Assembly: GCF_004010195.1 (NCBI RefSeq) | Contig: NC_057729.1 | Coordinates: 15,914,344-15,978,343 of the forward strand | Reading direction: 5' to 3' | DNA length: 64,000 nt | From: Chiloscyllium plagiosum | Taxonomy: Eukaryota | Part shown: positions 2,590 through 63,911 of the stretch, piece after piece | Layout of the letters: every line of letters begins with the position of its first letter | How positions within the stretch are numbered: the stretch's first letter is position 1 | Made by a program: the position numbers and the translations under genes | The notes under the pieces: generated by a model | Databases searched by the model: none | What the model was told of the DNA's origin: nothing | Seen by the model: the letters and a program-made list of their open reading frames with translations, nothing else

Positions 2590-4490
2590 TGCATTGCAAA
2601 TAGCTGAGTAAATATTGTAACGTAAATGTCGCTGGCATTTAAAAACAGATACTTTATCTCATACTTCTGCCTAAAATGTCCTGTGTCCAGCAGATGTGAA
2701 CCCCATACTTGGCCCATCAAAGTGACATTGATTCTGCCCATTCTTGGCATTGTCCTGGTCATTTTCCAGTTAAGCATCTAGAGAAGTATAAGTAATAGCA
2801 CGGAAGGCAGCTTTGTAGTGGACACAGTCAGCACCAGGCCCAACTTGATCATCACATAAGCCTCTACGCCTCTGATTATCTTGCAGTACCCATTTGTACC
2901 CATCCCTCATGTGTAGGCTATCACATTGAACTGCACTCTCCACTGTCCACCCACCACCCAAGCACCAACATTACACCTTAAATGATACCCACCAGCTCCT
3001 CAATGTTTCACTACTTCCCACCTTGGGGCCCACACTGAAGATCACTGCCAATAACAGGCCTTTCAATTGAATACCATGCAAAACAGCAACCAAATCTCAG
3101 GTATCCATTTCACAGCCAATTGTTACATATTTTCAATTTTCAAGTGCACTCTGGGACTGCCATCTGGTCATATACACAGTTGCTTGTAAACTCTCTGTTC
3201 AGAACAGCATTCACTCTCTCTTAAAGTTTCAGTACTTGCCTGCAACTTCATAACACCTGTGAATTTTGTTTCTTTGACCAACCATACACTCTGTGTTTCA
3301 TTCCCATCACCATTCTTATCCTCCCCTCGACAAATGCTTCTGTTTGCTCTATCATTCAGCCTTGACTCCCTCACCCATTTTGACAGTGATTCGTCTTGCT
3401 GCCACTACAGGTTCCCTCTTGTACTTTCCTTAACAATCAATGGACAGACCTCTGTCTGACTTACACAAACAATCCATTGACAGGATTGATCAGAATCCTG
3501 ATTGCTGTCCTTGCAGCTTCCCAACTGATGGCTAATTTCCCTGACTGCTGCTGCATTCCTATGAAACAGAACATTGTCCATTCCTTGGATTGCAGTCAGG
3601 TAGATCCCTTCAATATGACAAGCAGACAACATTGGTCAAGACACTGGATTTTGTATGGACTGACTGACGCAGCATCTTCCTGGACTGAATTAAGACTAGC
3701 CTCCGCTGACTTTGCGATGTGGCCATTTGGATGATTAATGTGATGTTTTCACAGCACAGGAGACTGGAACATGCTGTCGGTGTTATATTGCTGCCTGGAC
3801 ATGTCATACAACAAGAGGTGCCTTGCAGAGAGATCCTTCCTGGCAAGTAGCCCATCTATATTTCAACACAAAAACAGCATGTCAATGTGACAGCAATAGT
3901 AGCCTTCAGCTCTGGCTGATGCATTAATATGGTCATAAGTGTGGCATTGCAAGACAAGGCAAAGTGAGGCATAGATACTGCAAACTTACAGGTAGGAGTT
4001 AAGTTAGGGAGTGAGTGCTGAGTGATCAAATGAGCAGCCCTGACTTGCAGCTTGGTCAAATCCATGAGCTGCACACTTATCCCTGTGTACAAAGCATCCT
4101 TACAGCAGTGTTTCAATACTAGTTGTCAGTGAACATTGTTGTGCAGGTCAGTGAACATTGTGGTGCAGCCTGTGTTTTGTAAATGACCAGCAAGTGGATC
4201 AGAGAGGTGCCAGTATGGTTATGACCAATTGGCTATGGTCAGGTGCCAATGTCTATGGAGAAGGGGTGCACGTGGCAGGTTCTTATGGACCATGCCCTGA
4301 GATGCTGCTTCATGCTGTGCAAAGAGGAGACTCCTAGCAATAAGCTGCGGTGGCGAGGTGCCCACTCTACTTCGATGTCAAGAATTCTCAACATTTAGTG
4401 GGTTTCAGGGAATTTGGTAAGATCGGAAGCTGAATGTTAATCAGGTAAGTTATAACATTAATAAGACATTTAACAAGCTATATTCCCCTT

Positions 4491-4743
4491 TAGATTAGAT
4501 TCCCTACAGTGTAGAAACAGGCCCTTTGGCCCAACAAGTCCATACCGACTCTCCGAAAAGCAACCCACCCAGTCCCATTTCCCTCTGACTAATGTACCTA
4601 ACACTATGGCAATTTAGCATGGCCAATTCACCTAACCTGCACATCTTTGGACTGTGGGAGGAAACCGGAGCACCTGGAAGAAACCCTGCAGACACGGGGA
4701 GAATGTGCAAACTCCACGCAGACAGTTGCCCGAGGCTGGAACT
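4491..4743 (-). mobile_element. HE1-type (V-SINE) tRNA-derived SINE, head truncated
   Basis: Reverse complement of HE1 core (gtttgcacattctccccgtgtctgc, ccaaagatgtgcaggttagg) with (tctaa)n tail. Confidence 0.9.
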
Positions 4744-5035
4744 TGTTGATAACTTGCCACTGCCTAGCGTGAAACCTGTCACATTGCTTAACAAATGCAT
4801 AAACAATACAGTGAGTTACCCCCAAGGCAGGCATCATTGGATTTTGCATGCAACCCTGCCACAAATCTTGTTGTTGTCCTCACCATTCAGGCGCCTGTAA
4901 GATTCTGACTAGAACAGCCAAATGTGTAATTTCTTTATCATTTTTTTGTATTCAGGTTAAAACAATTTTTTGCTGTCATAAATAATTTCCAAAGGAACCC
5001 ATTGTTTAAACTTTAACTTTTCTTGCACCAAGTAA

Positions 5036-5343
5036 GGCACGGTGGCACAGTGGTTAGCACTGTTGCCTCACAGCGTCAGAGATCCGGGTTCAATTCCCGC
5101 CTCAGGCGACTGACTGTGTGGAGTTTGCACATTCTCCCCATGTCTGCGTGGGTTTCCTCCGGGTGCTCAGGTTTCCTCCCACTGTCCAAAGATGTGCAGG
5201 TCAGGTGAATTGGCCATGCTAAATTGCCCGTAGTGTTAGGTAAGGGGTATGGGTGGGTTGCGCTTCAGCGGGTCGGTGTGGACATGTTGGGCCGGAGGGC
5301 CTGTTTCCACACTGTAATGTAATCTAATGTAATCTAAATCTAA
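5036..5343 (+). mobile_element. HE1-type SINE, near full length
   Basis: A box tggcacagtgg, B box ggttcaattcc, V-domain core and (aatct)n tail. Confidence 0.93.
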
Positions 5344-5984
5344 AGTACTTAATAAATGTTACCCTAGTTTGTTCTTGCTGATTGTCAAGGTGCCATACTA
5401 ATCACAAGACTATTGTCAGGCTGAAATGTTTATATTGCATTCAATGGAGCTGCTATTACCCAGATGTTAATGTGATTTTCTCCAGTCCTTGTCATCTGAA
5501 ATTTAATAACGTATCAATACTGATAAAAGAATAATATAATGTTTCTTCTGCTTGTTGAATGAGAACTGACACTATGTCTCCATTCTTTTCTGACAAGAAC
5601 GTTTCGAGCAGGGTTGCAAAAGGATATATCTGTTTGGTTTCATTAAACACTGTAGACTTTTGAAGCAATAGGATCCATGCACACAAACCGATTTGATTAA
5701 CCCACATGTTTATGTCCCTGTCAGGTGGAAAATGCTGCCATGTCATAGACGGTCTGAAAAGAGGTGGGATTCATTCTGTTAATGATCATTAAAGGGTGGG
5801 TAGAGTATATGTTAGAGGGCTGAGGGATGATCATAGAGATGCAATTGGAATCAGATCAGTGATAGAGATGAAGGGTCTGTGATCAAGAATAGGGAATCAG
5901 TGATTACAGGATGAACGGTCAGTGATGGTATGGGGATTTTGATGGTGGAGCAGACGGTGACCATTAGAAGGTGATCATTTGTGC

Positions 5985-6107
5985 CAAACGGTGGCTCTGT
6001 GGTTAGCTCTGCTGCTTCCTAGCACCAGGACCTGGGTTCGATTCCAGCCTCGGGTGAATGTTTGTGTGGATATAGCACATTCTCCCAGTGTCTGCCTAGG
6101 TTCCTCC
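5985..6107 (+). mobile_element. HE1-type SINE, 5' half, interrupted by Gypsy provirus
   Basis: tRNA-like head (ggtggctctgtggttagc, ggttcgattcc); SINE resumes at about 10706. Confidence 0.85.
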
Positions 6108-6110
6108 AGA

Positions 6111-6745
6111 GTTATGGACCAGGCCAGACCCCTCAAAACATTTCAAGAGAGTAGCCTGGACCCTAACTTTGCTAATTGTTTTAAGTAGGTGTACACTGGA
6201 TATTCCAGAAGTGATGCAATTGGTCCAACCACTTTATTTTAAGCAAAACAGAATTTATTTGAAAGATTACTGAATTAAACACAAACAAAAGAGAAAACAA
6301 TATAGAATAACTTAATCTCACCAAAAACCCAATAGATTATCTTGACTTAGTGATGCTGTTCCAAATACTTGCAGCAATCCCCATAAACACTCTTTTGCAC
6401 AAAAGGTAAAATCAAACACAGGGTCTTTCAGGAGAAATGTCAGAGAGATGACAGAGAGATTCAGCATAGAACACCTTCTTCCATGTAACTGTTTCTTTGA
6501 CCAGCAGCCCCAAACTGACTGACTGCTTGCTCTGAACAGCCAGACTGCTAAAACCAAAGCAAACCAAACTAGAGTTAAGCTGAGCTGGGAGAACTGGTCA
6601 CTCCCCTTTCATTGCACAAGTTTATTTTTTAACTTTAAAGCTTCTTCAAGTAGATCAAGCCAGACATTTTGGAATCTGTGTCATAAAACACTTTTGTAAA
6701 AAGGACAAGGACAACATAACCTTGTTAAAGAGCAGCAGCATCACA
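6111..6745 (-). repeat. 3' LTR of Gypsy element
   Basis: Aligns end to end with 10065-10701 (ttatggacc...caca). Confidence 0.92.
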
Positions 6746-6929
6746 AGAGGGCTCTTCCCTTAAAAAAATCAATATCCAAAGATGGCTTCCTTTTGAAACC
6801 CCTTAATTTTAAATTGTTAGTACATTACAACACACACATACATTACATTGACTATAATCATGCAAACATGCACTACTACATTTCTGTTTCAGTCCGTTTT
6901 ACTACAGCCATCAAATGCCTCTGTTTCTC

Positions 6930-7745
6930 ATTCGAGTGCCGACAATACATCGACAATCATGTTTTCTCATCCTGCCATATGCACAATTTTCAAATTCAAT
7001 GGCTGTAACAACAGGCTCCATCTAAACCATCTGGAATTTTTGTCCTTTAATTTCTCCACAAATTTCAATGGGTTATGATCAATGTATATGATTGTCTTGT
7101 TATTACATAATTGGTAACATAAACATTGAAATGTTGTAATGCCAACACCAAACTCAAAGTCTCCTTCTTAATTGTCAAATATTTCTGCTGATGAATGTTC
7201 AATTTCCTGGAGACATACCCGATTGGTCTTTCTACCTTCTTGTCACCTTTCTGTAAGAGCACAGCATCGACACCCACATCACTCGCATCGATGGCCAACT
7301 TGAATGGCTTTGTGTAATTAGATGTGGCTAATATTGGGGCAGTGGTTAACACAGCTTTCAGGCTGTCAAATGCTTTCTAACAGTCTGCTGTCCACTGAAA
7401 CTTCTTGCCTTTCTTTAGCAATTCAGTGAGTGGAGCAGCCACACTGTTAAACTTTGGTACTAATTTTCGATGAAGTCCACTCAATCCCAGGAATTTTAGG
7501 ACTGCTTTTTTGTCAATGGTATGGAAAACTCCCTAATTACTTTTGGTAACATTCCATGGGACTATTTGTCTGTGTCCAATAACATGACCCTGGATGGTGA
7601 CTTGGGCTTTGGCAAATTCAGTTTTAGCTAGGTTTATCACCAAGCCTGCCTTCTGAAGTTAATTGAACAATTGTGATAAAAGTTGCAAATGTTCCTTCCA
7701 TGTGTGACTAAGAAATCACCAGATCCGCAATATAAACTACATAAC
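6930..7745 (-). pseudogene. Gypsy pol remnant: RT C-terminus plus RNase H
   Basis: VVYIADLVI (decayed YIDD), KAGLVINLAKTEF, KPFKLAIDASDVGVDAVLLQ, PIGYVSRKL, DHNPL...RWSLLLQ; stops and frameshifts. Confidence 0.9.
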
Positions 7746-21957: not shown

Positions 21958-23059
21958 TGTTCAAAGTTGTTCAAGTAGTTTAGTTCCGTAGTTGGCCGGG
22001 TGGATCTTAATGAGTATGAGTCTCTTGATTGGAGTTGTTAACCTGGGCCAATCAGGGGTTCTGGCTGACAGATGTAAACAGGAGTCCCCCCTTGTTGATT
22101 TTCTCAAAAACCTCCTCCTCTGCTTTTGGTTGCACTTCAGTCCCACGCTCCTGATCTTCGGGCACCCGGTACGGAGGAGGGAGGGCAGGTCTGAAGACCT
22201 CCTCGTGGGTCTCCTCCTGGGCTTGGCCAAACTGGCCATCAACAGGTCGAGGCAGTGGGCCATGGAGGGGGTCATTAGGGCTGACTGCCTGCCCCTCTTC
22301 CGCGGTTAAGTTAGAGCCCGGGTGCCCTTGGAGAAGGAGCACGCGGTGTCCACCAACACCCTGGAGTTGTTCAGGGAGAGGTGGGTGCCGCAGGGAGTGG
22401 AGTGCATCATTTCTCCCTCCAACTCTATTTTGATTTAGTCCCTACCCTCCCCCTCACTGTTTTTGATCACACAGCACTGCCCTTTGATGTGAAGGGCAGT
22501 GTTTGTCACTGGCCACCCAGGTGTTTTCCTATCTTCCTGGTGGTGGAAATTGAATAAAGATTTGTGCACTTTGTGTCCTTCACTGTGTATCACACCTGCA
22601 CACACACACCAAGGGTGCTGGTGAAAAAATAAGCACTACCGCGGGGTTAGGTGGTAGTGTGGAGAAAGAAAAAAAAAGAAGAAAAAGAAAGAAAAAGAAA
22701 AAAAAACAAAAAAAATAGGAGTCCCCCCTTTTTGATTTTCTCAAAAACCTCCTCCTCTGCTTTTGGTTGCACTTCAGTCTCACGCTCCTGATCTTCGGGC
22801 ACCCGGTACGGAGTAGGGAGGGCAGGTGCACTACCACAGTTAGGCGGTAGTGTGGGGGAAGGGGTTAATAAAAAAAAAGAAAAAAGAAAAGAAAAAGAAA
22901 AAAATATAATCAGGGAATTATCACAAAAAGTAAACAGGAGTCTCAGGGATTTTCCTTACTCAAGCAACTGGCTCTGTGCTGTTAAGAGTCCCTGTACTGT
23001 GTATGTATAAGTGATGGATGATTTGATAAAGAGCTACTGGCCTCCATAGAGTTCATTCA
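21958..23059 (+). mobile_element. Short solo LTR-like element split by the Tx1 insertion (21958-22086 plus 22908-23059)
   Basis: TG...CA ends; CCAAT box (ggccaatcaggg) and TATA-like taaacagg on both sides of the insertion. Confidence 0.55.
22087..22905 (+). mobile_element. Tx1/L1-group LINE, 5'-truncated 3' end with partial second copy
   Basis: FWLHFSPTLLIFGHPV...LLLGLAKLAINRSRQ...RARVPLEKEHAV...FRERW (Tx1 ORF2 C-terminus, premature stop at 22307, end at 22438); AATAAA at 22553; 3' hairpins; two A-rich tails. Confidence 0.85.
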
Positions 23060-23593: not shown

Positions 23594-23803
23594 TTAAAAA
23601 TCACACAACACCAGGTTATAGTCCAACAGGTTTAATTGGAAGCACACTAGCTTTCGGAGCGACGCTCCTTCATCAGGTGATAGTGAAGGAGCATCGCTCC
23701 GAAAGCTAGTGTGCTTCCAATTAAATCTGTTGGACTATAACCTGGTGTTGTGTGATTTTTAACTTTGTACACCCCAGTCCAACACCAGCATCTCCAAATC
23801 ATG
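23594..23803 (+). mobile_element. Penelope-like fold-back cassette (family B) with 13-bp TSD
   Basis: TSD acaggctagatag at 23581-23593 and 23804-23816; ~80-bp inverted arms plus ~40-nt unpaired tail. Confidence 0.9.
23645..23679 (-). ncRNA. Minimal hammerhead ribozyme with intact core (family B)
   Basis: Minus strand reads CAC-CTGATGA-a-GGAGC-gtc-GCTCC-GAA-AGCT-A-GTG: stem I CAC/GUG, stem II 5 bp, palindromic AGCU stem III, UA cleavage site. Confidence 0.8.
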
Positions 23804-29088: not shown

Positions 29089-29343
29089 GATTAGAGTGGT
29101 GCTGGAAAAGCACAGCAGGTCAGGCAGCATCCCTGGAGCAGGGAAATTGACATTTCGGGCAAAAGCCCTTCATCAGGAATGGAGCCCTCCATTCGGGCAA
29201 AAGCTCTCCATTCCTGATGAAGGGCTTTTGCCCGAAACGTCGATTTTCCTGCTCCTCGGATGCTGCCTGACCTGCTGTGCTTTTCTAGCACCACTCTAAT
29301 CCAGACTCTGGTTTCCAGCATCTGCAGTCCTCACTTTTGCCTA
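29089..29343 (+). mobile_element. Penelope-like fold-back cassette (family A) with 13-bp TSD
   Basis: TSD tac(a/g)gtgtgttaa at 29076-29088 and 29344-29356; ~95-bp inverted arms plus ~42-nt tail. Confidence 0.9.
29210..29245 (+). ncRNA. Minimal hammerhead ribozyme with intact core (family A)
   Basis: attc-CTGATGA-a-GGGC-tttt-GCCC-GAA-ACGT-C-gatt, with palindromic ACGU and GUC cleavage site. A mirror copy on the minus strand at 29146-29180 reads GAAAUGUC. Confidence 0.8.
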
Positions 29344-30565
29344 TACGGTGTGTTAACTTTTATTGATAGAGGGATTGAGTTTTGGAACCATGAGGCCAAG
29401 CTACAGGTGTACAAAACTCTGGTGCATCCGCATTTGGAGTATTGTATATAGTTCTGGTCGCCACATTATAGGAAGGATGTGGAAGCTTTAGAAATGGTTC
29501 AGAGGAGATTTACGAGGATGTTGCCTGGTATGGAGGGAAGGTTTTATGAGGAAAGGCTGGGGGACTTGAGGCTGTGTTCATTAGAGAGAAGAAGGTTGAG
29601 ATATGACTTAATTGAGACATATAAGATAATCAGAGGTTTAGATAGGTTGGACAGTGAGAAGATTTTTCCTGGGATGGTGATGGCTAGCATGAGGGGACAT
29701 AGCTTTAAATTGAGGGGTGATAGATATAGGACAGATGTCAGAGGTAGTTTCTTTACACAAAGAATAGTAGGGGCATTGAACATGCTGCCTGCAACAGTAG
29801 TAGACTTGCCATCTTTAAGGGCATTTAAATGGTCATTGAATAGGCATATGGACAAGAATGGAATAATGTAGGTTAGATGGGCTTTAGATTGGTTTCACAT
29901 TGAGGGTTGAAGGGCCTGTACTATGCTATAATATTCTATGTTCTAAATTGAGACCACAAATTGAGGAGCTGTACTCCTGGAGAACAGGATTAAGCTTAAA
30001 CACCTAAAAACTGGTGGATTGAGCTCAGCCCAGGTGTTCAAGTTTAGTAAATCTGAAAGACAAATCCAAGCCACCCCAACCTGCCCATTTGGAAATCTAG
30101 AAATCTGACAGTCAGCCTCAGAAAGAAATTAAGTGTCTTTATGACACAGCTCAAGGGCCAAGAGAAGCAGGAATGCATCCCCTCAACTCTTTTTCACATG
30201 GACCCATGTACAAAGCAATTCAAAGCCAGAATTTGGAATCCAGTTAGGGCTGTGTAACAGAACATGTCAGGACTGAATTGCCTAAGGTCAAGAATTGAAA
30301 ACTCCATTTCATGATCAGATTATACTCACCAGAGTTAGCAAACATTCTGGAATCAGAGAATTGTCTACTCCCCAGTATCCCCCGCCAGCTTCCCAACCAG
30401 ATTGAAAACATATTGGCATCAAACACTCAACGTCCAGAGTCAGGAATCAGACTCCTGCTGATGTCAGGAGTTTAATAACTCACACTAATAGATGTCACAT
30501 TCCACTTTTGGAATTTGCAAAAATCTACCAGGGTTATGGATCAGACCTGTCTATCTTACAGCCAT

Positions 30566-34699: not shown

Positions 34700-36420
34700 C
34701 TGTAAAGCAGAATTAAACACAAAGCCACAGAGGATAATATTAAAACAAGAGATCAAATGCTTGGTTAAAGCAGTGGATGTTAAGGCCTGTATCAACGGAA
34801 GCTAACGAGTTTGAAAATCTGAAACGTTTGGGGAGGGAATTTGAGATTTTAGTATATGCACGGTTGAACTTAGGGTGACCAAAAATGAAGCAATTAAATC
34901 AGGGATGCCAAACTGACCAGAATTTAATGAGTAGACATATCTTAGGAGGTCAAAGGGGCTGAAGGAAATGACAGAGATAATGATGAGCAAGGCTATGAAG
35001 GGATTGAAAACAAGGTTGAGAATACTAGGATCAGGGCATTCCTTGACTGAGAATTAATGCAGGTCAGTGAGCGAGAGGTGAAAAGGATTTGATGTGATAA
35101 AATCATAGGTAATAAAGGTCATAGTGATTTTAATTTTATGTAAGGTAGAACATGGAAGACTAGCCAAGAATGCATTGGAATAGTCAAGTCTCGAGGTACC
35201 AAAGACATGACTGATGGGTTTAACAGATGTATATGTTCCAGTACTGGGGCAGAGGCAGAAACCAAGTGAATACTGAGGTAATGTTATGAAGATGAAATGG
35301 GCAGTCTTATTGATGCTGTACATATCTGAAATCTCACCTCTAAATCAAATACGACATCAAAGTTGCAAACTGTCTATTTTAATCTTAGATAGTTGCTAGC
35401 TTGGACAAGATGGAGCTAGATCCAAAGACAATAGTTTCAATCTTCCCATTAATTGTTTGTGAAACTGGATGTTGGATAAACAATTTCATAATCTACAGAG
35501 AGTGCATTGAGAGAAGTTGTGGTGACATAGAACGGAGTGTCATCAGCATACATGTTTGCACTAATATTGTACGTTCTGATAATGTCACTGAGGGGTAACA
35601 TGCACATGAGAATAGGAAGGTGACAAGATAATTGAGTGGGAGTAGAAAAGGAAGCCATTCCAAGTGATGTCCAGGCTACGGTTAGATAGATAAGAATGGA
35701 AACAGACAAGTACAACTCCAGCCAGTTGGATGGCAATGGAAAGGTTGGAGGAGGATGACATAGGCAACTGTATAAAAAGCCGCAGAAGAAGGAAAAATGA
35801 TGAGAAGAGAAAGTTTACCTTAATCAACATCACCAAGGAAATTATTTTTATGTTTAATAAGAACTGTTTCAGTACTGTGACAGAAGCAAAAACCCGAATA
35901 GAAGGAGTACTACAAGAACCTTCAGGAAAGGTGGCGTGTATTTGAGAGGCCAAATTTTGTGCAATGACTTTGAAGAGGAAAACGAGTTTGCAAACAGGGT
36001 TGCAATGCAAGGGGAGGTTTTCTGATGGTATATTTAAAAAGGAAAGGCCAATAGTACCTGAAGAACGGGAACCATTAACAATGTCAGTAAGCATGAGGTC
36101 TGTTAGAGGATGTCAGATGATCTGCAGTTCAATGGCAAGATGGTCTAGCGAGCAGAAAATGGCTTTCAGAGGATGAAACCAAAGAGAACAAGAGGGGAAA
36201 TAGGAGAGGAATGACAGAAAAAAAGTGGTTTCCGGGCAAGAACAGGGGAGTTAAAGTCGGATTGGTCTGGAGCACTTGTAGAATGAGGAATGTAGCAAAG
36301 AGAGCGGACAAAGAAATCTGTGAGTACCTTGTACCTGTTGATGGAGGTAATGGTGAGGATATAGGGAAAGGCAGTTAAGATAATTGGCATGACAGAAAAG
36401 AAGCCACAGGCTATCTTTGC
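34700..36420 (-). mobile_element. Old L2-clade LINE ORF2 remnant
   Basis: MYADDT (~35539-35553), FHSYLSNRS, TSRLDYSNAFLASLP. Confidence 0.8.
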
Positions 36421-36469
36421 ATCGCAGGATATTGCTGGAATAATGTTAGTGTAGGACCTTATGAATTTT

Positions 36470-36775
36470 TTTTCATGGGATGGGAGTGTCATTGTTAAGG
36501 CCATTATTTTTTACCATTCTCTAATTGCCCTTGAATTGAGTTGTTTCCTCAGCCTTAAGGGACATTAAGGGTCAATCCCAATCCTGTGTATCTGGTGTCA
36601 CACATAAGCTAGGCCACCTACTGATTTCCTTCCTTGAGTCATTAATGAATTTAATGTGCTTTTATTAAAATTGACAATGATCTCATTCCATCAGCCGCTG
36701 TGATGGGATTTGAATCTATATCTCCCAGAACAAAGTCTTGGCCTTTGGGTGATTAATTCAGTCACATTACAACAA
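36470..36775 (-). mobile_element. SacSINE1-like DeuSINE (diverged)
   Basis: Homologous to 25915-26250. Confidence 0.6.
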
Positions 36776-39700
36776 TGCTCCGAGCAATGATAGTGATTCA
36801 TGCGATCCAACCAGATCTGCTATTGAATTGCTAAGTGAGCTCTCTGCCATATTCCCTTGGACCTAAAGGGAATGGAGATGAAAACTGTACAAGAGAAATA
36901 GGCAGTGTCAACAGAACAATTATTTTATTTGGAATGAAGAAAGCGAGGATGCTGCCAGGTAAAATTAATAGCTGCTGAAATGTCGTGGTCATCAGAAGGC
37001 CAAAGACCAGACTGTTGGGATTTTTAAAGTGCAGTTGTAAATGAATTTATGGTTACTTATTTATCTACCTCAAAATACAAGTCAAGGAATTGGAGGGGCA
37101 AAGTAGCTGACCACCCTTCCTCAAAGGAACCCTTGGTGCTGTGGGTCTAGCTTTGGAAAATTGAGGTCATTGTGATATATTTTAAAACTTACTTTCAAGT
37201 TTCTTATCTTGTTTATCAATCTTTTTCCCTCTCTCATGATTTAATTGCTTTGAAAGTTTTGTTCAAGCTTTTTTTGACATACCTATTTTCCTGACAGAAT
37301 CTATATTCTGTGTTCTCCTGCAATGAATACATACCCGTCAGTCTGGGAAATTGCTCTCAGTGGCCTGAGAAACAGCTGGCAGTAAGCAATTTTAACCCTA
37401 AATGTTCCATGAAATAAATGATTCAGTAACTTATGAGCAAGTACATGTCATTTTTGCAACAGTTTCTATTGGCAACACTACATAAATTGAACGATTTTGT
37501 GAATCAGATTGCAAATCAAAAAAAAACATTTTGACTGATTCATCATTGATTATTTATATAGAAAATGAACTAGTTTTTCTTTGTCTCCAATCAAAGTTGA
37601 TGTGTAACATAAATTAATGAAAAGCTATTCTAACCACACACGACATTATAATGAACCAGTATGCTCATGAGACTTGTTTATAAATCATATTGTCGTGCTA
37701 TACTTTGCTTCTTTAATAAATTAGGCAAACTATTCAACATTTAAATTCATCCTTTCCTGCATAACCTGTTGTCATATGACACCTAGTGGAAGAAATAAAA
37801 TTAAACATGAAAGGAATACCTTCGAATGTACAATCCAGCAGTATACGTGTTTATGTGATCTTTTACTTTTTATTGTCAATTAATTTGGAAGATGAATGTG
37901 CCATGGATTATTTTTAGCATTCATTAAGCTGAGGCAACATTATGTCCACTGCATAATCTTAAAATTGATGCTGAATAATCACAACATCAGACAGTTTTTT
38001 TATCCTTCTTTGGTGGAACATGGGCATCACTGATGAGGTCAGCATTTGTAACCCATAACTAAATGCCCTTGAGAAGATGGAGAAGATGAAACATCTTTTT
38101 AAACCATTCTAATCCATCTGGCACAGGTACACTGCACAGTTTTGATGGGCCAGGAGGTTCTCGGATTTTGACTCAATAATACTGAGTAGTAATCCTTTGC
38201 AGGAGGAAGGGTTCGGACTTTGGATCAGTGGGAAATTGGTTCCCAGGCAGGATGGCTATCAGGTCAGTGTTTGGGGTCCTAAGTGATTTAGGCGAAATAC
38301 AATTGGGATGTGTGTGAGAGAAGTATAGGATCTGTGAATTTGTCCCCCAAATGATAGACCATATATTTAATTTATCTTACTTAACTTTATCCGAGCCCTC
38401 CAAAGAATCTCATTTGAATGGAGACTTGAGAGTTCCACGAGTAAGGGAATTGCCAAACAGAAAATTAAATTTCTTGACCAATACTCTCCAAGTGTGCTAT
38501 GATGCAGTCCTCACATACAGCTCACATCTAAACTGGAATACTGAACATCTGGATGACCAGCTGCTGAATAACTGTTAAACTGACCCCAAGCTTCCCTTGT
38601 CCAGACCACTTACATTTCCTGATCTGACATGCTCAGAATCTGACCACATCCTACACAACCACCCATCCTTCACTTTGCACCCTCTTCACACACCACAATT
38701 TCCACCCACCTCCCACGTTGACCCAACCTGAACCCCCCACCCCACCTAATCATCAGACGCGAACCCCTTCCCCTCTACCTGAATGGGACCTGGCAGAAAC
38801 CCACTGCTGACCCAAATCAATGCTTATACCCACTCCCAATGGTCTTCACCCAACACCCTGCCACCCCCATACCATCTTTCTCCATAGGACCCAAAGCAAC
38901 ACTCCCCTCTTCATACGGCCCTGTCTGGTCCCAGCCCAACCAAATGCTCTGCTGCTCCTTACAGGTAGCTGTCACGAATGTTTGCAAAATGGCTTAGTGT
39001 AACTCTGTGTCAGACATTTTTCAGACTTCCTTGGCCAAAAGAATCACAGCAAGGTTTGGCTTCTACCACAAAGTATTCTTTTCATCTACCACATACATAT
39101 TCCAAATATCCATTTGATTTTTGAACATTATTGCAAAGGTTATTCAAAGGACATTCAGATGAGACATGAAGAAGCAGTGCTGCAGCAACACTGTAGGACT
39201 TTCCATTAGATTCAAAGAAACACCGTACAGTTGAAACTCTGGGAAATTACAATATAAATTGACAAGTAACCAAGAAACAACCATGTTATGTGAAGGAATT
39301 AAACAGTGATCAAACTGATTCCACAAGATGAAAATATTTTGACATTGAAGCAATGTTTTTCTAGCAAGGGGGTGATCAGTGAACACTAGGTGGTTCTTAC
39401 TGATAAAGTGAACCCGAAGAAGACATGAGAGGGATAAGAGTTCAGAACTGTGTGCCCCAGAGATGTTTGACCTGGTAGATGGGTATCCAGCATTGTAATC
39501 CATGAACATAAACATAACAATTTCTAATGGCTGTACATGATCTCAGAGAATAGTGAAGCAAGTTTTCTTTGCCAAGTAGCCTCCTCCTGCTCCTATTTCT
39601 TACGATCATAATTTAAGCCAAAGTTAGAGAATGCATTTGGAGGAGTAAACCCAGACACTGATAGTCAAAAGGTCATTTGAAGAAAAATTCCTTTCGTTAT

Positions 39701-41105
39701 TGATTGTGGAAATTGCAGGACTAACTGCAATACTTTTAAAATGGTTATTGTACTATCTTCTGTATAATATTATACCCTTCAGTGAAAAGATGGCAGGGTA
39801 TTCAGCATCATCTTCCCTTCAATTTATCATTGTTTCTAATGCAGTAAACAATTAAGGTAGACATTACCAGGAATGGACCAGGCTTTATATTTTTTGTATT
39901 CGTTCATGTGTTATGGACATTGCTGGTGAGGCCAATGTTGACTTAACTGCCCTTTCCTAGTTGCCTTTGGGAAAATGGTGATGAGCTCCCTTCTTGAACA
40001 ACTGCAATCTATTTGCTGCAGATAGTCCTACAATGGCATTAGGGAAAGAGTTCCAGGAATTCGACCTATTGAAGCAACTGTGATATACTTCCATGTAAGA
40101 ATGGTGAGAGACTTGGAGAGGAACATGCAGGTGGTTATGTTGCCAGGCATCTGCTGCTCTTGTCCTTCTAGATGAACAGATGCCATAGGTTTGTAAGGTG
40201 CTGTCCAAGGAGCCTTGTGAATTTCTGTACCGCATCTTGTAGATGGTAGTCACCCTTGTTACTGAATGTCAATGGTGGAGGGAGTGAATGTTTGTGGATA
40301 TGGTGCTAATTAAGTGGCTTGCTTTGCCCAAGATGATGTAAAACTTTTGAGTGGTGTTGGAGCTGCAATAAACCAGGCAGGTGAAAGGCATTCCATTACA
40401 GTCCTGACTTGTGCCTTACAGATAGTAAACAGTCTTTGGTGACTCAGGAAATAAGTTATTGCAGGATTCTGAGATTCTGATCTGTTCCTGTAGCCATTGT
40501 GTTTATGTAGCTAGTCCAGTTCAATGCTGGTCTTTCACAACTCTTGGGATGTTGATAATGGGGGATTGAGCGATGCTATTGCAATTAAATGTCATTGTTC
40601 GGAACATAGAATTGTACAGGAAAGGAATATGCCCTTTAGGCCACGATGTTATTCTGAACATGACAACAAATTAAATGAATCCCTTCTGCCCACCCTTGGT
40701 TCATCTCCCTCATTCCTTGCCTATTCATGCGTTTATCTAAAAGTTCCTTAAATTCACCTATCGTATCTGCCTCCACCTCTATCGCTGGCAGTGTGTTTCG
40801 GATTCCTACCACTCTCTGTTACAAAAAACTTGCCCCTCACATCTCCTTTGAACTTTCCCCCTCTCACCTTAAATGCAAATCTCCTAGTTTTAGACATTTG
40901 AACTCTGGGGAAAATATTTTGACCGTCAACCCTGTCTATGCATTTCATATTATAGGCTTCTAACAAGTCTCCCCTCAGCCTTCACTGCTCCATAGTAAAC
41001 AATTGGGTTTTTCTAGTCATTCCTTTCAGGTCATATTCTCTAACTCAGGCAGCATCCTGGTAAATCTCTTCTGCACCCTCTCCAAAGCATCCACATCCTT
41101 ACTGT

Positions 41106-41318
41106 CAGCAGGTCTGGCAGCATCTGTAAGGAGAGAAAAGAGCTGACGTTTCGAGTCTAACTGACCCTTTGTCAAAGCTGAGCTTTGACAAAGGGTCAGT
41201 TAGACTCGAAACATCAACTCTTATCTCCTTACAGATGCTGCCAGTCCTGCTGAGATTTTCCAGCATTTTCTCTTTTGGTTTCAGATTCCAGCATCCGCAG
41301 TAATTTGCTTTTATCTCC
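41106..41318 (+). mobile_element. Penelope-like fold-back cassette (family C) with 12-bp TSD
   Basis: TSD catccttactgt at 41094-41105 and 41319-41330; ~74-bp inverted arms centred on 41180; ~65-nt tail. Confidence 0.88.
41141..41179 (-). ncRNA. Minimal hammerhead variant with U3-A8 core
   Basis: Minus strand reads AGCT-TTGACAA-a-GGGTC-agtta-GACTC-GAA-ACGT-C-AGCT; mirror copy on the plus strand at 41181-41219. Confidence 0.7.
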
Positions 41319-43129
41319 CATCCTTACTGTAACGTGGCAACCAGAATTGAATGCAATACCCCTAGTGTGGCCTAACCAAAGTCCTATATAGGTGTAACGT
41401 GGCATTCTGACTCATGTATTCAATTCCCTGACCAATAAAGGCAAGCCTGCCAGACATTTTCTTTACCACCCTATCTACTTGCATTGCGTTTAGATTCTTT
41501 CTTGTTGGAAATGGTCTTTGCCAGGTGCTTGAGTGGCATGCGTGCCACTTGCCACTTGGCAGTACAAATTTGGGTATTTCCCAGGTCTTGTAGGACTTAG
41601 TGATGCACTGCTTCAGTATTGAAAGAGTTGCAAATGTTGCTGAACATTATGCAAATGTTAGTAAACATCCCCACTTCACACCTATGATGGCAGGAAGTTT
41701 ATTAGGGAAGCAGCTGAAGATAGTTGGGACCTAAAATGATATCCTGAGGAACTCCTGCAGAAATGTTTTGGAGCTGAGATGACTGACCTGCAACAGCTAT
41801 AACCATCTTCCTATGTGCCAGATGTAACACTAACCAGCAGAGAGTTTTCTCCTTGAAAATCAACAATTAACAAAAATGTTTATTGAGTTTCATATTACAG
41901 TCCACTTAAAAACAAATGATGCTGTACACTACCATCTTCTCTTCCTGTTCTGTTTTATGGTTAAGATCCAATAAACTGAACTGGGATTATTGTTAAAACA
42001 AATGTGCACTCCTATGCTGTGTTAATACTTTCCCACAAAATTACTGGAGATTAAAAGGCTGTTTTTCAGTACTTTGGTAACTGCCATGCTTCAAAAGACA
42101 TTAGGGTTGGAAATCAACTTGGTTGAGTCTACATTTCTGTTGCTAAGGGACCTCTTCTTTTGTTCACACTAGTGACTTCACTGTGGGCATGCAATTCAGG
42201 CATGTCCTGCACTGAAGCCATTTGGTAAGGGTCAAACAAGTATTGTATTTTACTCACATCAGAAGCAAGCATTAGGCCACCAAAACCTGTAAATAAGGGG
42301 CCTGTTGGCTCCTGCTCCTTTTTATCGTCTGAGGCAATTGGCAGTCAGCTGATCATCTCTATCTCTGTGGAAAAAGAACATGAAGTAGTGCAGAATGAGA
42401 AAAAAGTTAGAATTCACCTTAATCATTACCATTCCTGATCCCGAAATTACTAATCTGATTCCCAGCTCTGACCTTCAGACAGCTCTAGTCTCACCCAGTA
42501 ATATCCTTGTGTTCGCAATCCCACTCAGCCAATAATACTACAGCTGCCCAAGTTATTCTTTCCCAAATACACATTGAGACCCAGCCAATCTCCCTCCAGA
42601 CCCCATAATGTTATGCTGCCATTTATTTGAGCATCGGTGCTTGAACCTCTGTTGGCCTTTATCAGAGGGTCTGTTAATATCTGAGAGTTCAAATCATGGT
42701 TTTCTTAGATCACTACCTTTGCGTGTGGATTATTAACACTCTGCAGTTGAGGTTTCTAAAACAAATCCAGGCCTAAATGTATTTTACATTGTGGTATTAC
42801 TTGGGAAAATATACTGCCAATGTCACAATGTGGTTTACAGTAGTCGATGATGAAAATATCAGTCTGTAATTTGGGAATCGGGGAGAATATTGCATGTATA
42901 GAAAGGATTATGAGTATTGCTGAAAGAAAGACTAATTTTATCAAAGCTTTTCATCCTATACTTTGAGACAATTTACAAGAAATGCTGATGTAATGTGAAA
43001 ATAATGTTTATGTTGTCTGAGAGGAGAGTCCTGATTGTTTGACAAGAGGACTCTGATTAGTAGAGACATTGTCCTGAAAAATAAAACAGAGAATAGCTGT
43101 CAGCTGTTTTTTTTTAGTTGAAACAAATG

Positions 43130-43312
43130 CAGTGTGTGTAAAAACTCACCTGGTTTATTAAGGAAAGAAATGTACCGTTCTTGCTTAGCCTGGTGTGCAT
43201 GCCACTACAGACCCGTGGGAAAGTGGTTGACTTTTAACTGTCCTCTGAGCAATTAGGGATGGGTAATAAATGCTGGCTGAGCCAGTGAAGTCCACATCCC
43301 ATGAACAAATAA
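43130..43312 (+). mobile_element. SacSINE1-like DeuSINE 3' part
   Basis: gtggttgacttttaactgtcctctg..caattagggatgggtaataaatgctggc..cacatcccatgaa. Confidence 0.7.
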
Positions 43313-43946
43313 AAAGAAATCAAAACAGAAGCACTTAAAAATCTTAAACACTTCAATGGTTGCAGCTTCAAACCGTCACTCCATATATTTTTATTTTAAT
43401 TGAAAAACTGAGTGTTATGTATTAGTCTGGTATTTATTTACAGTGCATCCTTGCAAATTAATTGAATTGCTTTTCAATCTTGAAATATTTGAAATATTCA
43501 TTTTACAAGATTTCTTTTCACTTTAGACTTTATGAATTATTAAACCATACAGCAAAATAAAATGGACATGTCTTTACTACAAATGAGCAACAAAACCTTC
43601 AGCAATGTATTAGATTATTCAGGAAGTATGAAAATCTGAATAAATATTATCAAGAAAGCTCCACAAATTGTCTTCTACTTTGTTGTGAAAAACACCCTTC
43701 CAGGCTTGTCATGAGAGGTATGTGTGATGAAGTGATAAACAGTCTCCCTTTCCTGATGAATCAAACCATAAATGTTTACATTTCAAATGCAGGTGTTTTT
43801 GCTTTCATGGACATGAGATCTCCTGTGATGTAACTCTACCACTGTATTGGAGGCCTTGCAGCAGAAGATGAGGGAACTATTAAAAGGAAAATCCTGCTTG
43901 ACCTCTATCTTACCAAGCTATCTATGAAAAATGCACCTGTTTATTA

Positions 43947-44858
43947 CAGAGGAACCTCGATTATCCGAATACCAATTATCCGAAAATCGGATTATCCGAA
44001 GGACATCTCGAGGTCCCGATAAAAACATTACATCAAACATGTGTTTCCAACACTGATTGTGTCTTTTGTTTACAGTGATTAAACAGGCACCATCTCCAAA
44101 TGACTGACCTCCCGCCCTCTCTCTCTTCCCACACTTTCCATGGAGTTTTACAGAGGGGTGTACCCTAAACCCTCCTTTCCCCAGATAATCTCTTTAATAT
44201 TGTCCTGTACAGGGCAAACATGGAACCTGTCAAAAAGTTGCAGTAAAAATGTGTGTGTGTGTGCATGTGTGTGTGTACACTGTTTGAAGACATACCCCAC
44301 AAAGGCAGCTGCAGCAGTCTTGTTACTGGTGTTCAGTCCAGATGCCCGGGAGAAGGGACGGGGATGGATGGGGGGGTACACGAGGTGGGGAGGGCAGGTA
44401 TGTTGGGGTTTGGGGANNNNNNNNNNNNNNNNNNNNNNNNNNNNNNNNNNNNNNNNNNNNNNNNNNNNNNNNNNNNNNNNNNNNNNNNNNNNNNNNNNNN
44501 NNNNNNNNNNNNNNNNNNNNNNNNNNNNNNNNNNNNNNNNNNNNNNNNNNNNNNNNNNNNNNNNNNNNNNNNNNNNNNNNNNNNNNNNNNNNNNNNNNNN
44601 NNNNNNNNNNNNNNNNNNTGGATGGGGCGGGGGTGGTGTTGAACGGGATTAGCGGAGGGGGGCGGTGTTGGACCAGGTTCGGGGGCGGTGTTGGGGCGGG
44701 GCCTCGTGCACTGTGCACTGCTGCAGTCTCCTGAATGGGGAAAAGAGTTTAAAAACTCTGAGCCCCAGAGGAAAGGCATTTACTCGATTAATCAAATAAT
44801 CGGTTATCCGAATGAAATAGTGTCCACCCATCTCATTCAGATAATCGAGGTTCCCCTG
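43947..44858. mobile_element. Tc1/mariner (pogo/Tigger-like) non-autonomous DNA transposon
   Basis: 23-bp TIRs CAG(A/G)GGAACCTCGATTATC(C/T)GAA; TA TSD at 43945-43946 and 44859-44860; subterminal attatccgaa repeats. Confidence 0.9.
44417..44618. other. Assembly gap (202 N)
   Basis: Run of N inside a G-rich segment. Confidence 1.
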
Positions 44859-44863
44859 TATAG

Positions 44864-45805
44864 AATTGAATTGAATTTATTGTCATGTGTAACGAGGCAC
44901 AGTGAAAAGCTTTGTCTTGCGAGCAATACAGGCAGATCACAGAGTTAAGTAGCATCGATAAGTAAATAATAGGTAAACAGCGGCAAAAACAAAAACACAG
45001 GTACAGGTGAATGGTCAGAGTTTGTGAGTCCATTTAGTATTCTAACAACAGTAGGGTAGAAACTGTTATGAAACCAGCTGGTGCGTGTGTTCAGGCTTTT
45101 GTAACTTCTCCCCAGTTAGATTGTAGAAAAACATTGCCAGGGTGGGATGCTGGCGACCTTTCCTTGACAGCAGGCCTGGTAGATGGATTCTATTGTTGGG
45201 AGGTTGGCTTTTGTGATTGTCTGGGCCGAGTTCACCACTTTCTGTAACCGTCTCTGATCTTGAATAGTATAGTTGCCATACCAGGTAGTGATACATCCAG
45301 ACAGAATGCTCTCGATGGCGCACCTATAAAAGTTAGCAAGTGTATTTGCCGTCATGCCAAATTTCCTCAGCTGCCTGAGGAAGAGACGTTGTTGGATCTT
45401 TGTAAACACTGCATCCACATGAAGAGTCCAAGAAAGCTTGCTGTGGACAACCATTCCCAGGAGCTTGACACTCTCCACTCATTCCACCTCTGTGCTGTTA
45501 ATGTGTAGGGCACAGCAACATCCTGTCGAAAGTCAATAGTGAGTTTTTAGCCTTTGCTGGCATTGGGAGCTAGGTTGTTCTCAGTGCACCATTTTTCCAA
45601 ATCTTCCACCTCCTGTCTGTAGTCTGTTTCATCACCTTCTGAGATTCGATCGACCATGGTGGTGTCATCAGCGAACTTGTAGTGAGTACAGTAGGGGACC
45701 GAGTAAGCACCCCTGGGGTGCTCCAGTATTGAGTATTAGTGAGGATAAAATATTGTCCCCAATCTTCACTGATTGTGGCCTGCGGATCAGGAAACTGTAG
45801 ACAAT
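44864..45805 (-). mobile_element. Rex1/Babar-type LINE 3' portion
   Basis: NTGAPQGCLLGPLLYSL; KFADDTT; QQRLFLRQLRKFG...FYRCAIESILSGCITTWYGN; (aattc)n tail. Confidence 0.88.
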
Positions 45806-45809
45806 GGAG

Positions 45810-45952
45810 CTTGGCCAATTCACATAACCTGCACATCTTTGGACTGTGGGAGGAAACCCACATAGACACGGGGAGAATGTGCAAACTCCAGATAGACAGC
45901 CGCCCAAGGGTGGAATCAAACCCAGGTCCTATGAGGCAGCAGTGCTAACTAC
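45810..45952 (-). mobile_element. HE1-type SINE fragment
   Basis: Reverse-complemented core and head. Confidence 0.82.
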
Positions 45953-46628
45953 TTGTTCAACATTTGTTCAATGACAAATTGAAGAGACCATGTCAGAAGC
46001 AGCATCAGATTTTCCTAAGAATGGGGTGCCTCCCATGAAAGTTATTAAATAGGACTATATGCATACTAAACAGCAGAAGCAGTTAGAAACATTCAAGGTC
46101 TGCAGTGCTGCCACATCATGAATGGTTGGATATTTAACTAGAGTGGATCTCCTCTTCATCAAGTATCAACCATGCCCATGCTCAATGATGGGAGTCCAAT
46201 ATCTTTGTGCAAATTACAATGTTAAAGATTTTGCAATCAATTTGCAAAGAGGAGTACAGTATTTTAAAATGGCACTTACACAGCGGTAATCTGCTCAATG
46301 AGGCTTACTTTAAGTTCTGCCAAGTCCATTCAGCTCCAAGTCAATGTCAGGCCTTCCATACATTCTGTGATCTACCTTGATAAAATATCGTGACATTTTC
46401 TGCTTCTAGCAGCCTCTCCTGCTGTCAGAAAGTCTATATTTGTAACAACTCTCTTACTAAAAGTAAATCCTATTAAAATTTTCCCTTGACTTGACATTAT
46501 AGTTGGCTGTACATTCAATAACTTGACCATAAGTAGTCTAAGAGAATCAATATTCTGTTGTCTCTGGAAAGCAAATTATCCTGCCTGTATCCTTTTTTCA
46601 AGCCATACATTCATGACCAATATAGCAA

Positions 46629-54637: not shown

Positions 54638-55330
54638 AATTAGAGTGGTGCTGGAAAAGCACAGCCTGTCAGGCAGCATCCAAGGAGCAAGAAAAGCGAC
54701 GATTCGGGCAAAGGCCCTTCATTAGGAATGAGGCAGGATGTCTCAGGGTTGGAGAGGTAAGTGGGAAGAGGGTAGGGCTGGGGAGGAGGTAGCTAAGATT
54801 GCAATAGGTGGATGGAAGTGGGGATGAAGGTGATAGGTCGGAGAGGAGGGTGGAGTGGATAGAAATGTTCTATGGCAGAAGATGAAGCGGTCTTCCTCCA
54901 GGCAACAGGCAGTGAGGGAGTGGTGGTGGAGGAGGCCCAGGACCTGCATATCCTCGGCAGAGTGGGAGGGGGAGTTGAAATGTTTGGCCATGGGGGTTGG
55001 GGTTGATTGGTGCAGGTGTCCCAGAGCTGTTCTCTGAAGTGCTCTGCAAGAAGGCATCCAGTCTCCCCAATGCAACAGATACAGTAAATGACATGTGTGG
55101 AAGTGCAGGTGAAACTTTGATGGATGTGGAAGGTTCCTTTGGGGCCTTGGATGAAGGTGAGGGGGGAGGTGTGGGCACAGGTTTTGTAATTCCTGCGGTA
55201 ACAGGGGTTTTATGCAGAGTTTGGTGGGTTGGAAGGTGAGGACCGGGGCGTTCTGTCCTTGTTGCGGTTGGAGGGGTGGGGTTCGAGTGCGGATGTGCGG
55301 GACCTGGATGAGATGCATTGGAGGGCCCAT
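54638..55330 (-). mobile_element. Penelope-like element 3' part (family A): GIY-YIG endonuclease remnant plus pLTR
   Basis: CAHT...QSFTCTSTHVIYCIC..IGETG; AKHFNSPSHSAEDMQVLGLLH; decayed hammerhead at about 54697-54729 (CUAAUGA...GAAUC). Confidence 0.9.
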
Positions 55331-61077: not shown

Positions 61078-63911
61078 AGACCATGATATATAGGAGCAGA
61101 ATTAGGCCATTGGGACCTTTGTATCTGCTCTGCCATTTGATCATGGCTGAAATGTTTCTCAACCCCATTCTCCTCCCTTCTCCTGTCACCTTTGATTCCC
61201 TTATTAATCAAGAACTTATCTTTCTCTGTCATAAATACACTCAAAGACTCGGTCTCCACAAGCTCTTCCAACAATGAGTTACACAGATTCAGCACCCTCT
61301 GGCTAAAGAAATGTCTCCTCCTGAAGGTAGTCATGCTTTGGAGATGCCGGTGTTGGACTGGGGTGGACAAAGTTAAAAATCACACAACACCAGGTTATAG
61401 TCCTACAGGTTTATTTGGAAGCACGAGCTTTTGGAGCACTGCTCCTTCATCAGATGGTTGTGGAGTATAAGATTATAGGACACAGAATTTACAGAATTTA
61501 TGATGTAATTGAAATTATATTTTGAAAAAAAAAACAAGGATTGTTTGTTAAGTCTCTCATCTTTTAGAATGGGCATGTTGGTTTCAGTTCTTTCATATGT
61601 AATCTCAGAAATTTCTTAAACTTACAGTTTCAAGTAAACTTTAACAATAGGTGCTATGTTGGCCCAGATAACACATTAAAGGTATAAGGTGCCCGGTGTG
61701 AGGCTGTCTATGCTATAATGTTCAGACTGAATCGAATCAAAAAAGGGATTTACAAAATCTTATATGGATTCAAGCAGTTTTTGAACAAAATCAAATGTAA
61801 TTTTGCAAGTATAAATTCACCCCACAAACTTTTATGTGTATGTGCATGTGGGTGTGTGTACAGGGGGTTATGAGTGTCTGTGAGAGAGTACGTGGGAGAG
61901 TATGTATATGTGTATGCATGTGAGTGAGTGTAAAGGGTTATTGGTCTGGAAGAGAGTGCATGTGAGTGTGGAAGTGTATATGTGCGCATATGAGAGAGGG
62001 TCAGTGTATGGGTCTCTAGGAGTGTGTATGTGTCTGTAGGACTATCTGTGTGTGTGAGTGTGTGTAGTGTAGTGGGGTCACCTGTAGTGTGACATGAACC
62101 CAAGGACCATCTTCCAAGGCAGACAACAACGTAAAGTGGCTGAATAGAGGTTGTTAGCCAAGCTCGGTGCCCATGGGGATGGCCTCAACCGGGGCCTTGT
62201 GTTCACATCACACTACAGGTGCACTACACACACACACACACACACACACTCCTATAGACCCACATACTCCCACAGACCCTCTCTCATATACTCACATACA
62301 CTCCCAAACTCACAAGCATGCACGCTCTCACAGACTTTTACCTCTTTACACTCACACAAATACACATACACACACTCTCACAGACACTCATACCCCACCC
62401 CGTGCACACACACACACACACACAAGTTTGTGGAGTGAATTTGTACTTGCAGAATTACATTTTATTTTGTGCAAAAACTGCATGATTCCATGTAAGATTC
62501 TGTAAATCCCTTTTTCAGATTAGAATCAGTTTGAACACTGGGGCACAGACAGCCACCTCACACTTCAATGCATTATCTGAGCCAACATGGCACCCATTGT
62601 TAAAGTTCACTTGAGAATGTAACTTTAAGAAAGTTCTGAGATTGCATATGAAAGAACTGAAACCAACATGCCCATTCCAAGAGATGGGAGACTTAGCAAA
62701 CAACCAATATAATTTCAGTTACATCACACTGTAAACCTTTGCTATAAATTTTGTGTCCGATGATCTTATACTCCACAACCACCTGATGAAGGAGCAACGC
62801 TCTGAAAGTTAGTGCTTCCAAATGAACCTGTTGGACTATAACCTGGTGTTGTGTGATTTTTCACTTTGTCCTCCTGAAGGATTTTCCTTTGGTCCTAGAC
62901 TGTCCTACTCTTAGAAACATCATCTCTACATGCACGCTGTTCAGGCCTCTCAGAATTCTGTAAGTTCCAATGAGATCGCCCTTCTAAACTCTATCCAGTA
63001 CAGCCCCAGAGTACACAACTGCTCCTCATATGACAATCTCTTCAATCCTGGGATTATTCTTATAACCCACCTCTGGACCCTCTCCAGGACCAGCGCATCC
63101 TTCATTAGATATTGGGCCCAAAGCTGCTCACAGTATTCCAAATGTGGTCTGACCAGAACCTTATATAGCCTCAGCAGAGCATACCTTTTTTTTGTTCTTT
63201 TCCTCTTGAAATTTTCAGCAAAACTACCAAGTTTTACAAAGTGAGAGTGGTGTTGTACTGTGGGCTTGGCATCACAAGGCATTGAGTTGAGTTTGTCGTT
63301 GGATAATCGAGTTAACATTTGGAAAATAATTTCCAGTTTGACATCTATCTTAAAAATATTCAATGGCCTTTGACAAGGTGCCACACAGGAGATTGCCAAA
63401 TAAGTTAAGAACCCATGGTGTTAGGAGCAAGGTATTGGTGAGGATAGAGGATTGGCTGACTGACAGAAGGCAGAGATTGGGGATAAAGGGGTCTTTTTCA
63501 GGATGACAGCCAGTGACTAGTAGAGTTATGCAGGGGTCAGCGTTGGGGCCACAACTATCACATTATACACTAATGATCTGCTCGAAGAAACTGAGGGCAT
63601 TGATGCTAAGGTTGTACAGGACACAAATATAGGAGCAGGGGCAGTTAGTACTGAGGAAGTGGGGAGACTGCAGAAGCATTTGGACAGGCTAAGAGAGTGA
63701 CCAAGAAGTAGCAGATGGAACATAATGTGGAAAAGTGTGAGACCATGCACGTTGGTAGGAAGAATAGAGACATACACTATTTTCTGAATTGGAAAGGGCT
63801 TTGGAAATTTAAAGCACAATGAAACTTAGGAGTCCTGGTTAAGGATTTCCCAAAGTTTGACATACACGTACAAATTGGCAGTTAGGAATGCAAATTCAAC
63901 ATTAGGATTCA
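61078..63911 (-). mobile_element. CR1 LINE with 5' inversion, interrupted by a PLE
   Basis: Minus-strand part at 61078-61327 plus 62871-63212 (LYKVLVRPHLEYCEQLW); inverted plus-strand RT part at about 63240-63911 (AFDKVPHRRL, QGSALGPQL). Confidence 0.85.
61328..62870 (-). mobile_element. 1.5-kb Penelope-like fold-back element (family B) with 10-12-bp TSD
   Basis: TSD (tc)ctcctgaagg at 61316-61327 and 62869-62880; long inverted arms; central GIY-YIG C-terminus QRKVAE*RLLAKLGAHGDGLNRGLVFTSHYR; hammerhead motifs at about 61422-61456 (-) and 62780-62814 (+). Confidence 0.9.

Follow-up and report, generated by a model that had tools for sequence, protein, structure and literature searches.

The 213 bases at 41106–41318 of the window (the whole 64,000-nt stretch of Chiloscyllium plagiosum DNA analysed here) form an insertion with two hammerhead copies arranged head to head, each carrying U3-A8 in place of the canonical C3-G8 core pair. 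Taken together, it is probable that this is a terminal-repeat insertion of a Penelope-like element, that its U3-A8 core comes from an abundant subfamily that would retain the 3-8 pair and weak, dimer-type self-cleavage, and that the copy itself is inert. A 12-bp direct repeat sets the exact borders, and the parts are as follows.

41094–41105, plus strand: left target-site duplication, 12 bp, identical to 41319–41330
41319–41330, plus strand: right target-site duplication, 12 bp, identical to 41094–41105
41106–41179, minus strand: inverted arm of the terminal repeat, shortened at its 3' end, 74 nt
41176–41184, no strand: fold-back axis, with both stem I 5' strands around base 41180, read from the sequence
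41221–41318, plus strand: downstream part of the terminal repeat, common to the C3-G8 siblings (alignment A1, blastn)
41045–41105, minus strand: host repeat broken by the insertion and resuming past 41330 (depth, joints, translation)

The fold-back arms are 41106–41179 and 41181–41252, and a further ~66 nt (41253–41318) belong to the plus arm only, with no counterpart in the minus arm. The predicted fold of the fold-back has an energy of −122.1 kcal/mol (z −21.8), which none of 200 shuffles equalled. The arms are taken as one event because only 4 substitutions and one 2-nt gap separate them over 74 columns; this agrees with the caution in the original prediction that both come from one template, and they are scored accordingly. 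Of the two, the minus arm seems nearer to the majority state of the family. The arm differences that can be polarised (41213, 41217, 41245) all lie in the plus arm, although these are few events and the bias is possibly chance.

Four of 24 listed public runs (X1, X11, X16, X21) were aligned to 41000–41420 at 80% likeness. X1, X11 and X16 represent three organisms, X1 and X11 being DNA runs of two of them, while X21 is a single-cell poly(A) RNA run of which about 2 in 100 reads were used. All four sequencing runs contain empty-site joints, which skip 225 nt and leave 12 letters ambiguous. As these joints skip the element together with one copy of the duplication, the element is an insertion into another repeat. 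The flank at 41045–41104 has very high read depth and the joints run across the insertion. This interrupted host repeat we take to resemble the 3' part of a CR1/L2-type LINE ORF. Pfam searches of four window stretches including the flank returned nothing in all four cases, and an Atlas protein search with the flank gave only unnamed clusters carrying no family name.

The fold-back architecture is not confined to this locus. A variant without 5 nt at the axis (41176–41180) is a perfect palindrome, found in three of the runs (15, 11 and 2 contigs), with a depth of 3,842 of 38,507 in X1. The abundance of this shorter form implies that the mirror arm arises here in more than one register. Among the pieces listed, six contig pieces with 6–11 differences each cross the axis, which together with the many contigs of the shorter form indicates that the fold-back recurs at other loci.

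Each arm contains a hammerhead motif, and only that of the minus arm is intact.

41141–41179, minus strand: intact minimal type I hammerhead motif (hammerhead numbering, descriptor match, predicted fold of stems I and II)
41179–41176 with 41144–41141, minus strand: stem I, AGCU/AGCU, 4 bp (numbering and predicted fold)
41167–41163 with 41157–41153, minus strand: stem II, GGGUC/GACUC, with a 5-nt loop (numbering and predicted fold)
41175, 41170, 41168, 41152 and 41145, minus strand: U3, A8, an extra A, G12 and C17, respectively (numbering)
41149–41146, minus strand: ACGU palindrome (numbering)
41181–41220, plus strand: decayed second hammerhead copy, with U3 at 41185 and A8 at 41190

The UUGACAA that the original prediction had placed in both arms is indeed read at core positions 3–9 in each, and the minus-arm stem I, stem II, GAAA, ACGU and GUC that it had called intact are all present by hammerhead numbering. 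The minus-arm core runs U3 U4 G5 A6 C7 A8 A9, an extra A, stem II, then G12 A13 A14. The extra A, between positions 9 and 10.1, is absent from the first description. Apart from the U3-A8 swap all core positions are kept, and the arm has the full core of a minimal hammerhead: boxes 3–9, G12-A13-A14, A15.1-U16.1, H17 and a Watson-Crick 3-8 pair. Stem I is short, G10.1-C11.1 closes stem II, a single base lies between 9 and 10.1, helix III is absent, and 15.2–16.2 is palindromic. In the plus arm, G16.2 has become A at 41213, a stem I pair is broken at 41217 (G in 92% of X1 depth at this position), and the ACGU palindrome is broken.

Across the window, a minimal-hammerhead descriptor gave the minus arm as its sole U3-A8 match, and 100 dinucleotide shuffles of the window gave none; this descriptor is strict, recovering just one of the seven C3-G8 sibling cores described below. 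Rfam models at E values up to 5 gave seven matches in 36000–46000, all below threshold, which were microRNA models or other chance resemblances and included no hammerhead model. A loose pattern match at 22906 was dropped as a chance hit.

The core swap itself is known. Several natural hammerheads show covariation of C3-G8 to U3-A8 (Perreault et al. 2011, PMC3088659). In Penelope-like elements, the Cercyon element of Schistosoma led to U3-A8, and a dedicated descriptor gave ~1,300 matches (Cervera and De la Pena 2014, PMC4209133). The suggestion that the present motif defines a new, overlooked class of hammerheads is thus superseded, the swap having been in print since 2011 and, for Penelope-like elements, since 2014. 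The alignment of 56 motifs in PMC4209133 contains two U3-A8 rows and one U3-G8 row, with no cartilaginous fish among the species names listed in the portion available. What may be new here is a vertebrate (shark-like) U3-A8 subfamily. No report of a U3-A8 hammerhead in sharks was found in the literature searched, subscription papers being largely outside its scope. One cartilaginous fish is included in the sampling of a 2026 preprint (10.64898/2026.07.22.740005), whose supplements may contain the present family. Background only came from PMC7151607 and PMC6155905.

The closest counterparts are the minimal U3-A8 hammerheads of Cercyon in Schistosoma mansoni, which share the same swap, the type I form, a stem I of 4–5 bp, and an extra base between 9 and 10.1. 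They also share G10.1-C11.1, a palindromic 15/16 and the absence of helix III, and the majority of the Cercyon copies are truncated elements, either solo or inverted, as here (PMC4209133). The present motif differs in its shark-like vertebrate host and in its stem sequences. The natural variants of PMC3088659 share the U3-A8 covariation, but the section describing them makes no tie to retroelements, whereas the motif here has no helix III and would need a dimer. Such minimal hammerheads of Penelope-like elements are thought to be weak dimer cleavers acting via the palindrome (PMC4209133, review PMC6765202). The insertion as a whole resembles those of Penelope (Arkhipova et al. 2013, PMC3846280) in its head-to-head inverted terminal repeat (pLTR), one shorter arm, junction palindrome, tail, and short duplication. 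It departs from them in having no ORF between the repeats and a duplication of 12 bp vs. 8–10 bp. PAc Poseidon of Anolis, likewise a vertebrate Penelope-like element with a hammerhead, has had its 3-8 pair examined through swap and rescue, but its core is canonical C3-G8 and the rescue was G3-C8, not U3-A8 (PMC11167929). There the G3-C8 swap gave partial rescue and cleavage required the protein of the element.

The link to Penelope-like elements runs through related copies. Seven more hammerhead-like cores lie in the window (2504+, 29214+, 29176−, 30568+, 54725−, 23676− and 61453−), all seven with C3-G8, and five of them have the downstream repeat in common with the insertion. One is part of a longer remnant.

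54640–55330, minus strand: Penelope-like remnant with a C3-G8 motif (C3 at 54725; G5 lost) and a decayed GIY-YIG piece at 54991–55197

The motif lies ~270 nt downstream of this decayed endonuclease piece, which matches the Chiloscyllium protein P0001 with 66% identity across 76 aa. P0001 carries an RT-type YIDD motif, and its GIY-YIG match scores 17.7 bits, below the Pfam cut-off of 22.6. A Penelope-like origin is proposed because this sibling both has the downstream repeat in common with the U3-A8 copy and lies near the P0001-like piece. Judged by these sequence relationships, the hammerhead module is likely Penelope-associated by way of its sibling family. The association made in the original prediction is thus borne out for the C3-G8 sibling near the GIY-YIG piece, but not by any coding sequence on the U3-A8 copy, which has no ORF. 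At 29100–29345 and 2465–2590 the C3-G8 siblings are likewise head-to-head inverted pairs, and the short spacer at 29176–29214 is rearranged with a third partial copy of stem II. At 23620–23800 and 61340–61460 lies a third repeat family, distinguished by its own stems and a CUGAUGA core; within it, 23620–23760 is an inverted pair with one arm truncated within the core.

Read depth and covariation bear on whether U3-A8 is the state of a family or of one copy. At 41176, the neighbour of U3, depth sums to 38,507 in X1, 17,100 in X11, and 4,897 in X16, with 30 reads in X21. The median depth of contig pieces (eight listed) is 5.3 in X1 and 19.3 in X11, such that the core stands at ~3,600–7,300 and ~440–890 times the median piece, respectively, where summed depth is not a copy number. 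Depth falls on entering the core bin, from 192,094 to 66,075 in X1 and from 565,241 to 65,709 in X11, partly because other families have the downstream part in common. No difference at 41170, 41175, 41185, or 41190 appears among the difference rows listed (40 of 177), each of which attains a share of 29% or more in one run or another. If the rows are ranked by share, an inferred ordering, C3 and G8 would be minorities among the aligned pieces.

Alignment A1 comprises seven rows, five of the seven siblings and both arms of the insertion. Its 3-8 pair is C-G in five rows and U-A in two, and never mixed. Both sides change in six of ten pairs, and 87.7% of cells pair compared with 15–42% in slid controls. 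Only one independent 3-8 change can be counted in the window, because both U-A rows represent one event. Exact-pattern scans of the viral_contigs, metagenome_contigs and genome_contigs collections, in which shark DNA is not expected, returned no matches.

The most likely reading of this evidence is that U3-A8 represents a paired change at the family level and not decay. The earlier claim of covariation in preference to decay holds as to the family-level state, given the depth, the absence of a listed difference and the A1 pairs, but with a single independent change behind it. The converse, that decay put C3U and G8A into one copy of an ordinary CUGANGA family, either earlier or later than the formation of the mirror arm, is highly improbable. 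The seven other cores of the window are all C3-G8, as that account would predict, and the difference rows beyond those listed leave space for C3 or G8 copies (in X1, five A>G and three T>C places fall outside the 40 of 177), as does clipping, by which pieces with C3 or G8 could go uncounted. Against this stand the otherwise unchanged core of the minus arm, the lack of any difference at 3 or 8 among the 40 of 177 rows listed, and a core depth exceeding that of single-locus pieces by a factor of hundreds to thousands in X1 and X11, DNA runs of two organisms.

A more serious alternative accepts U3-A8 as the family state but holds the ribozyme to be dead or irrelevant, both changes having drifted into one successful parent and spread along with it. 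The single independent change is compatible with this, as is the nature of the mutations, since C3U and G8A are both transitions and G8 following C7 makes a CpG, a mutation hot spot. Minimal hammerheads are, moreover, poor cleavers (PMC4209133), and in the Anolis system cleavage was dispensable for in vitro insertion and read ends were absent from the cut site (PMC11167929). Yet the other core bases, the stems, the extra base, ACGU and GUC are all intact in the minus arm, and its stems differ from those of the siblings via paired changes. Schistosoma elements and further natural hammerheads carry U3-A8 as well (PMC4209133, PMC3088659), and the swap is stated to be active in vitro (PMC3088659). 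A dead or irrelevant ribozyme is therefore considered improbable, and we infer selection for the U3-A8 pair. Function in the parent is nevertheless not assured, because hammerhead mutants left in vitro insertion of the Anolis element unaffected (PMC11167929).

In the preferred reading, the active parent element would have carried the U3-A8 core and so kept the 3-8 base pair. Its RNA would cleave after GUC once two sense copies pair via ACGU, possibly assisted by the protein of the element, as in Anolis. At this locus, reverse transcription may have copied just the terminal repeat up to stem I, after which the mirror arm would have been added, as in Penelope insertions. It could be speculated that G8A came first and C3U followed as a rescue, an order suggested because C7 with an ancestral G8 would make a CpG.

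A more specific proposal is that a shark Penelope-like subfamily gained U3-A8 independently of flatworms, perhaps through CpG-driven loss of G8 and rescue by C3U, and then spread to thousands of copies beside its C3-G8 siblings. This is put forward tentatively, as a possibility that we hold to be less than even. If true, it would be natural evidence of selection on the hammerhead catalytic pair in living vertebrate Penelope elements, although cleavage was dispensable for in vitro insertion (PMC11167929). The insertion as a whole is of modest weight and would add a vertebrate high-copy case of a known core swap. Searches restricted to CUGANGA and Rfam models overlook such families. The presence of C3-G8 and U3-A8 siblings in one genome offers a natural pair for asking if Penelope hammerheads must cleave in vivo.

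The present copy is predicted to be inert and locked in a hairpin, because by computation the hammerhead fold of the minus-strand transcript costs 56.3 kcal/mol relative to the hairpin. In that transcript the antisense arm is made first, and a read-through transcript of the locus would zip into a 74-bp hairpin burying the core. No dimer can form within one transcript, because the arms are on opposite strands. Folded in isolation, an arm is no more stable than shuffles (z −0.71). The two-monomer cofold minimum is not the ACGU-bridged dimer, a result given no weight because the core lies outside what nearest-neighbour folding models. We regard the locus as a probable relic.

That the locus itself has a function, be it ribozyme activity or the supply of small RNAs from its hairpin, is the least probable of the readings. 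The hairpin is very stable, it has weak Rfam matches to microRNA precursor models, and RNA reads of the family occur on both strands. The X21 run gave 532 such reads, with no pile-up of starts or ends, in a library type that is blind to cleavage ends. Just 9 of the 532 are at least 99% alike to the locus, the plus arm has decayed, and the cost of the hammerhead fold and the early synthesis of the antisense arm weigh against an active ribozyme. The Rfam scores lie far under the gathering thresholds and reflect any long hairpin; with 66.7 vs. 140 bits and 37.4 vs. 90 bits, a microRNA precursor was rejected. A non-LTR retrozyme was also rejected, as 38000–45000 contains no tandem direct repeat and the copies are head to head. 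A separate inverted repeat at 43945–44860 has 26-nt arms lying 864 nt apart across the assembly gap at 44417–44618.
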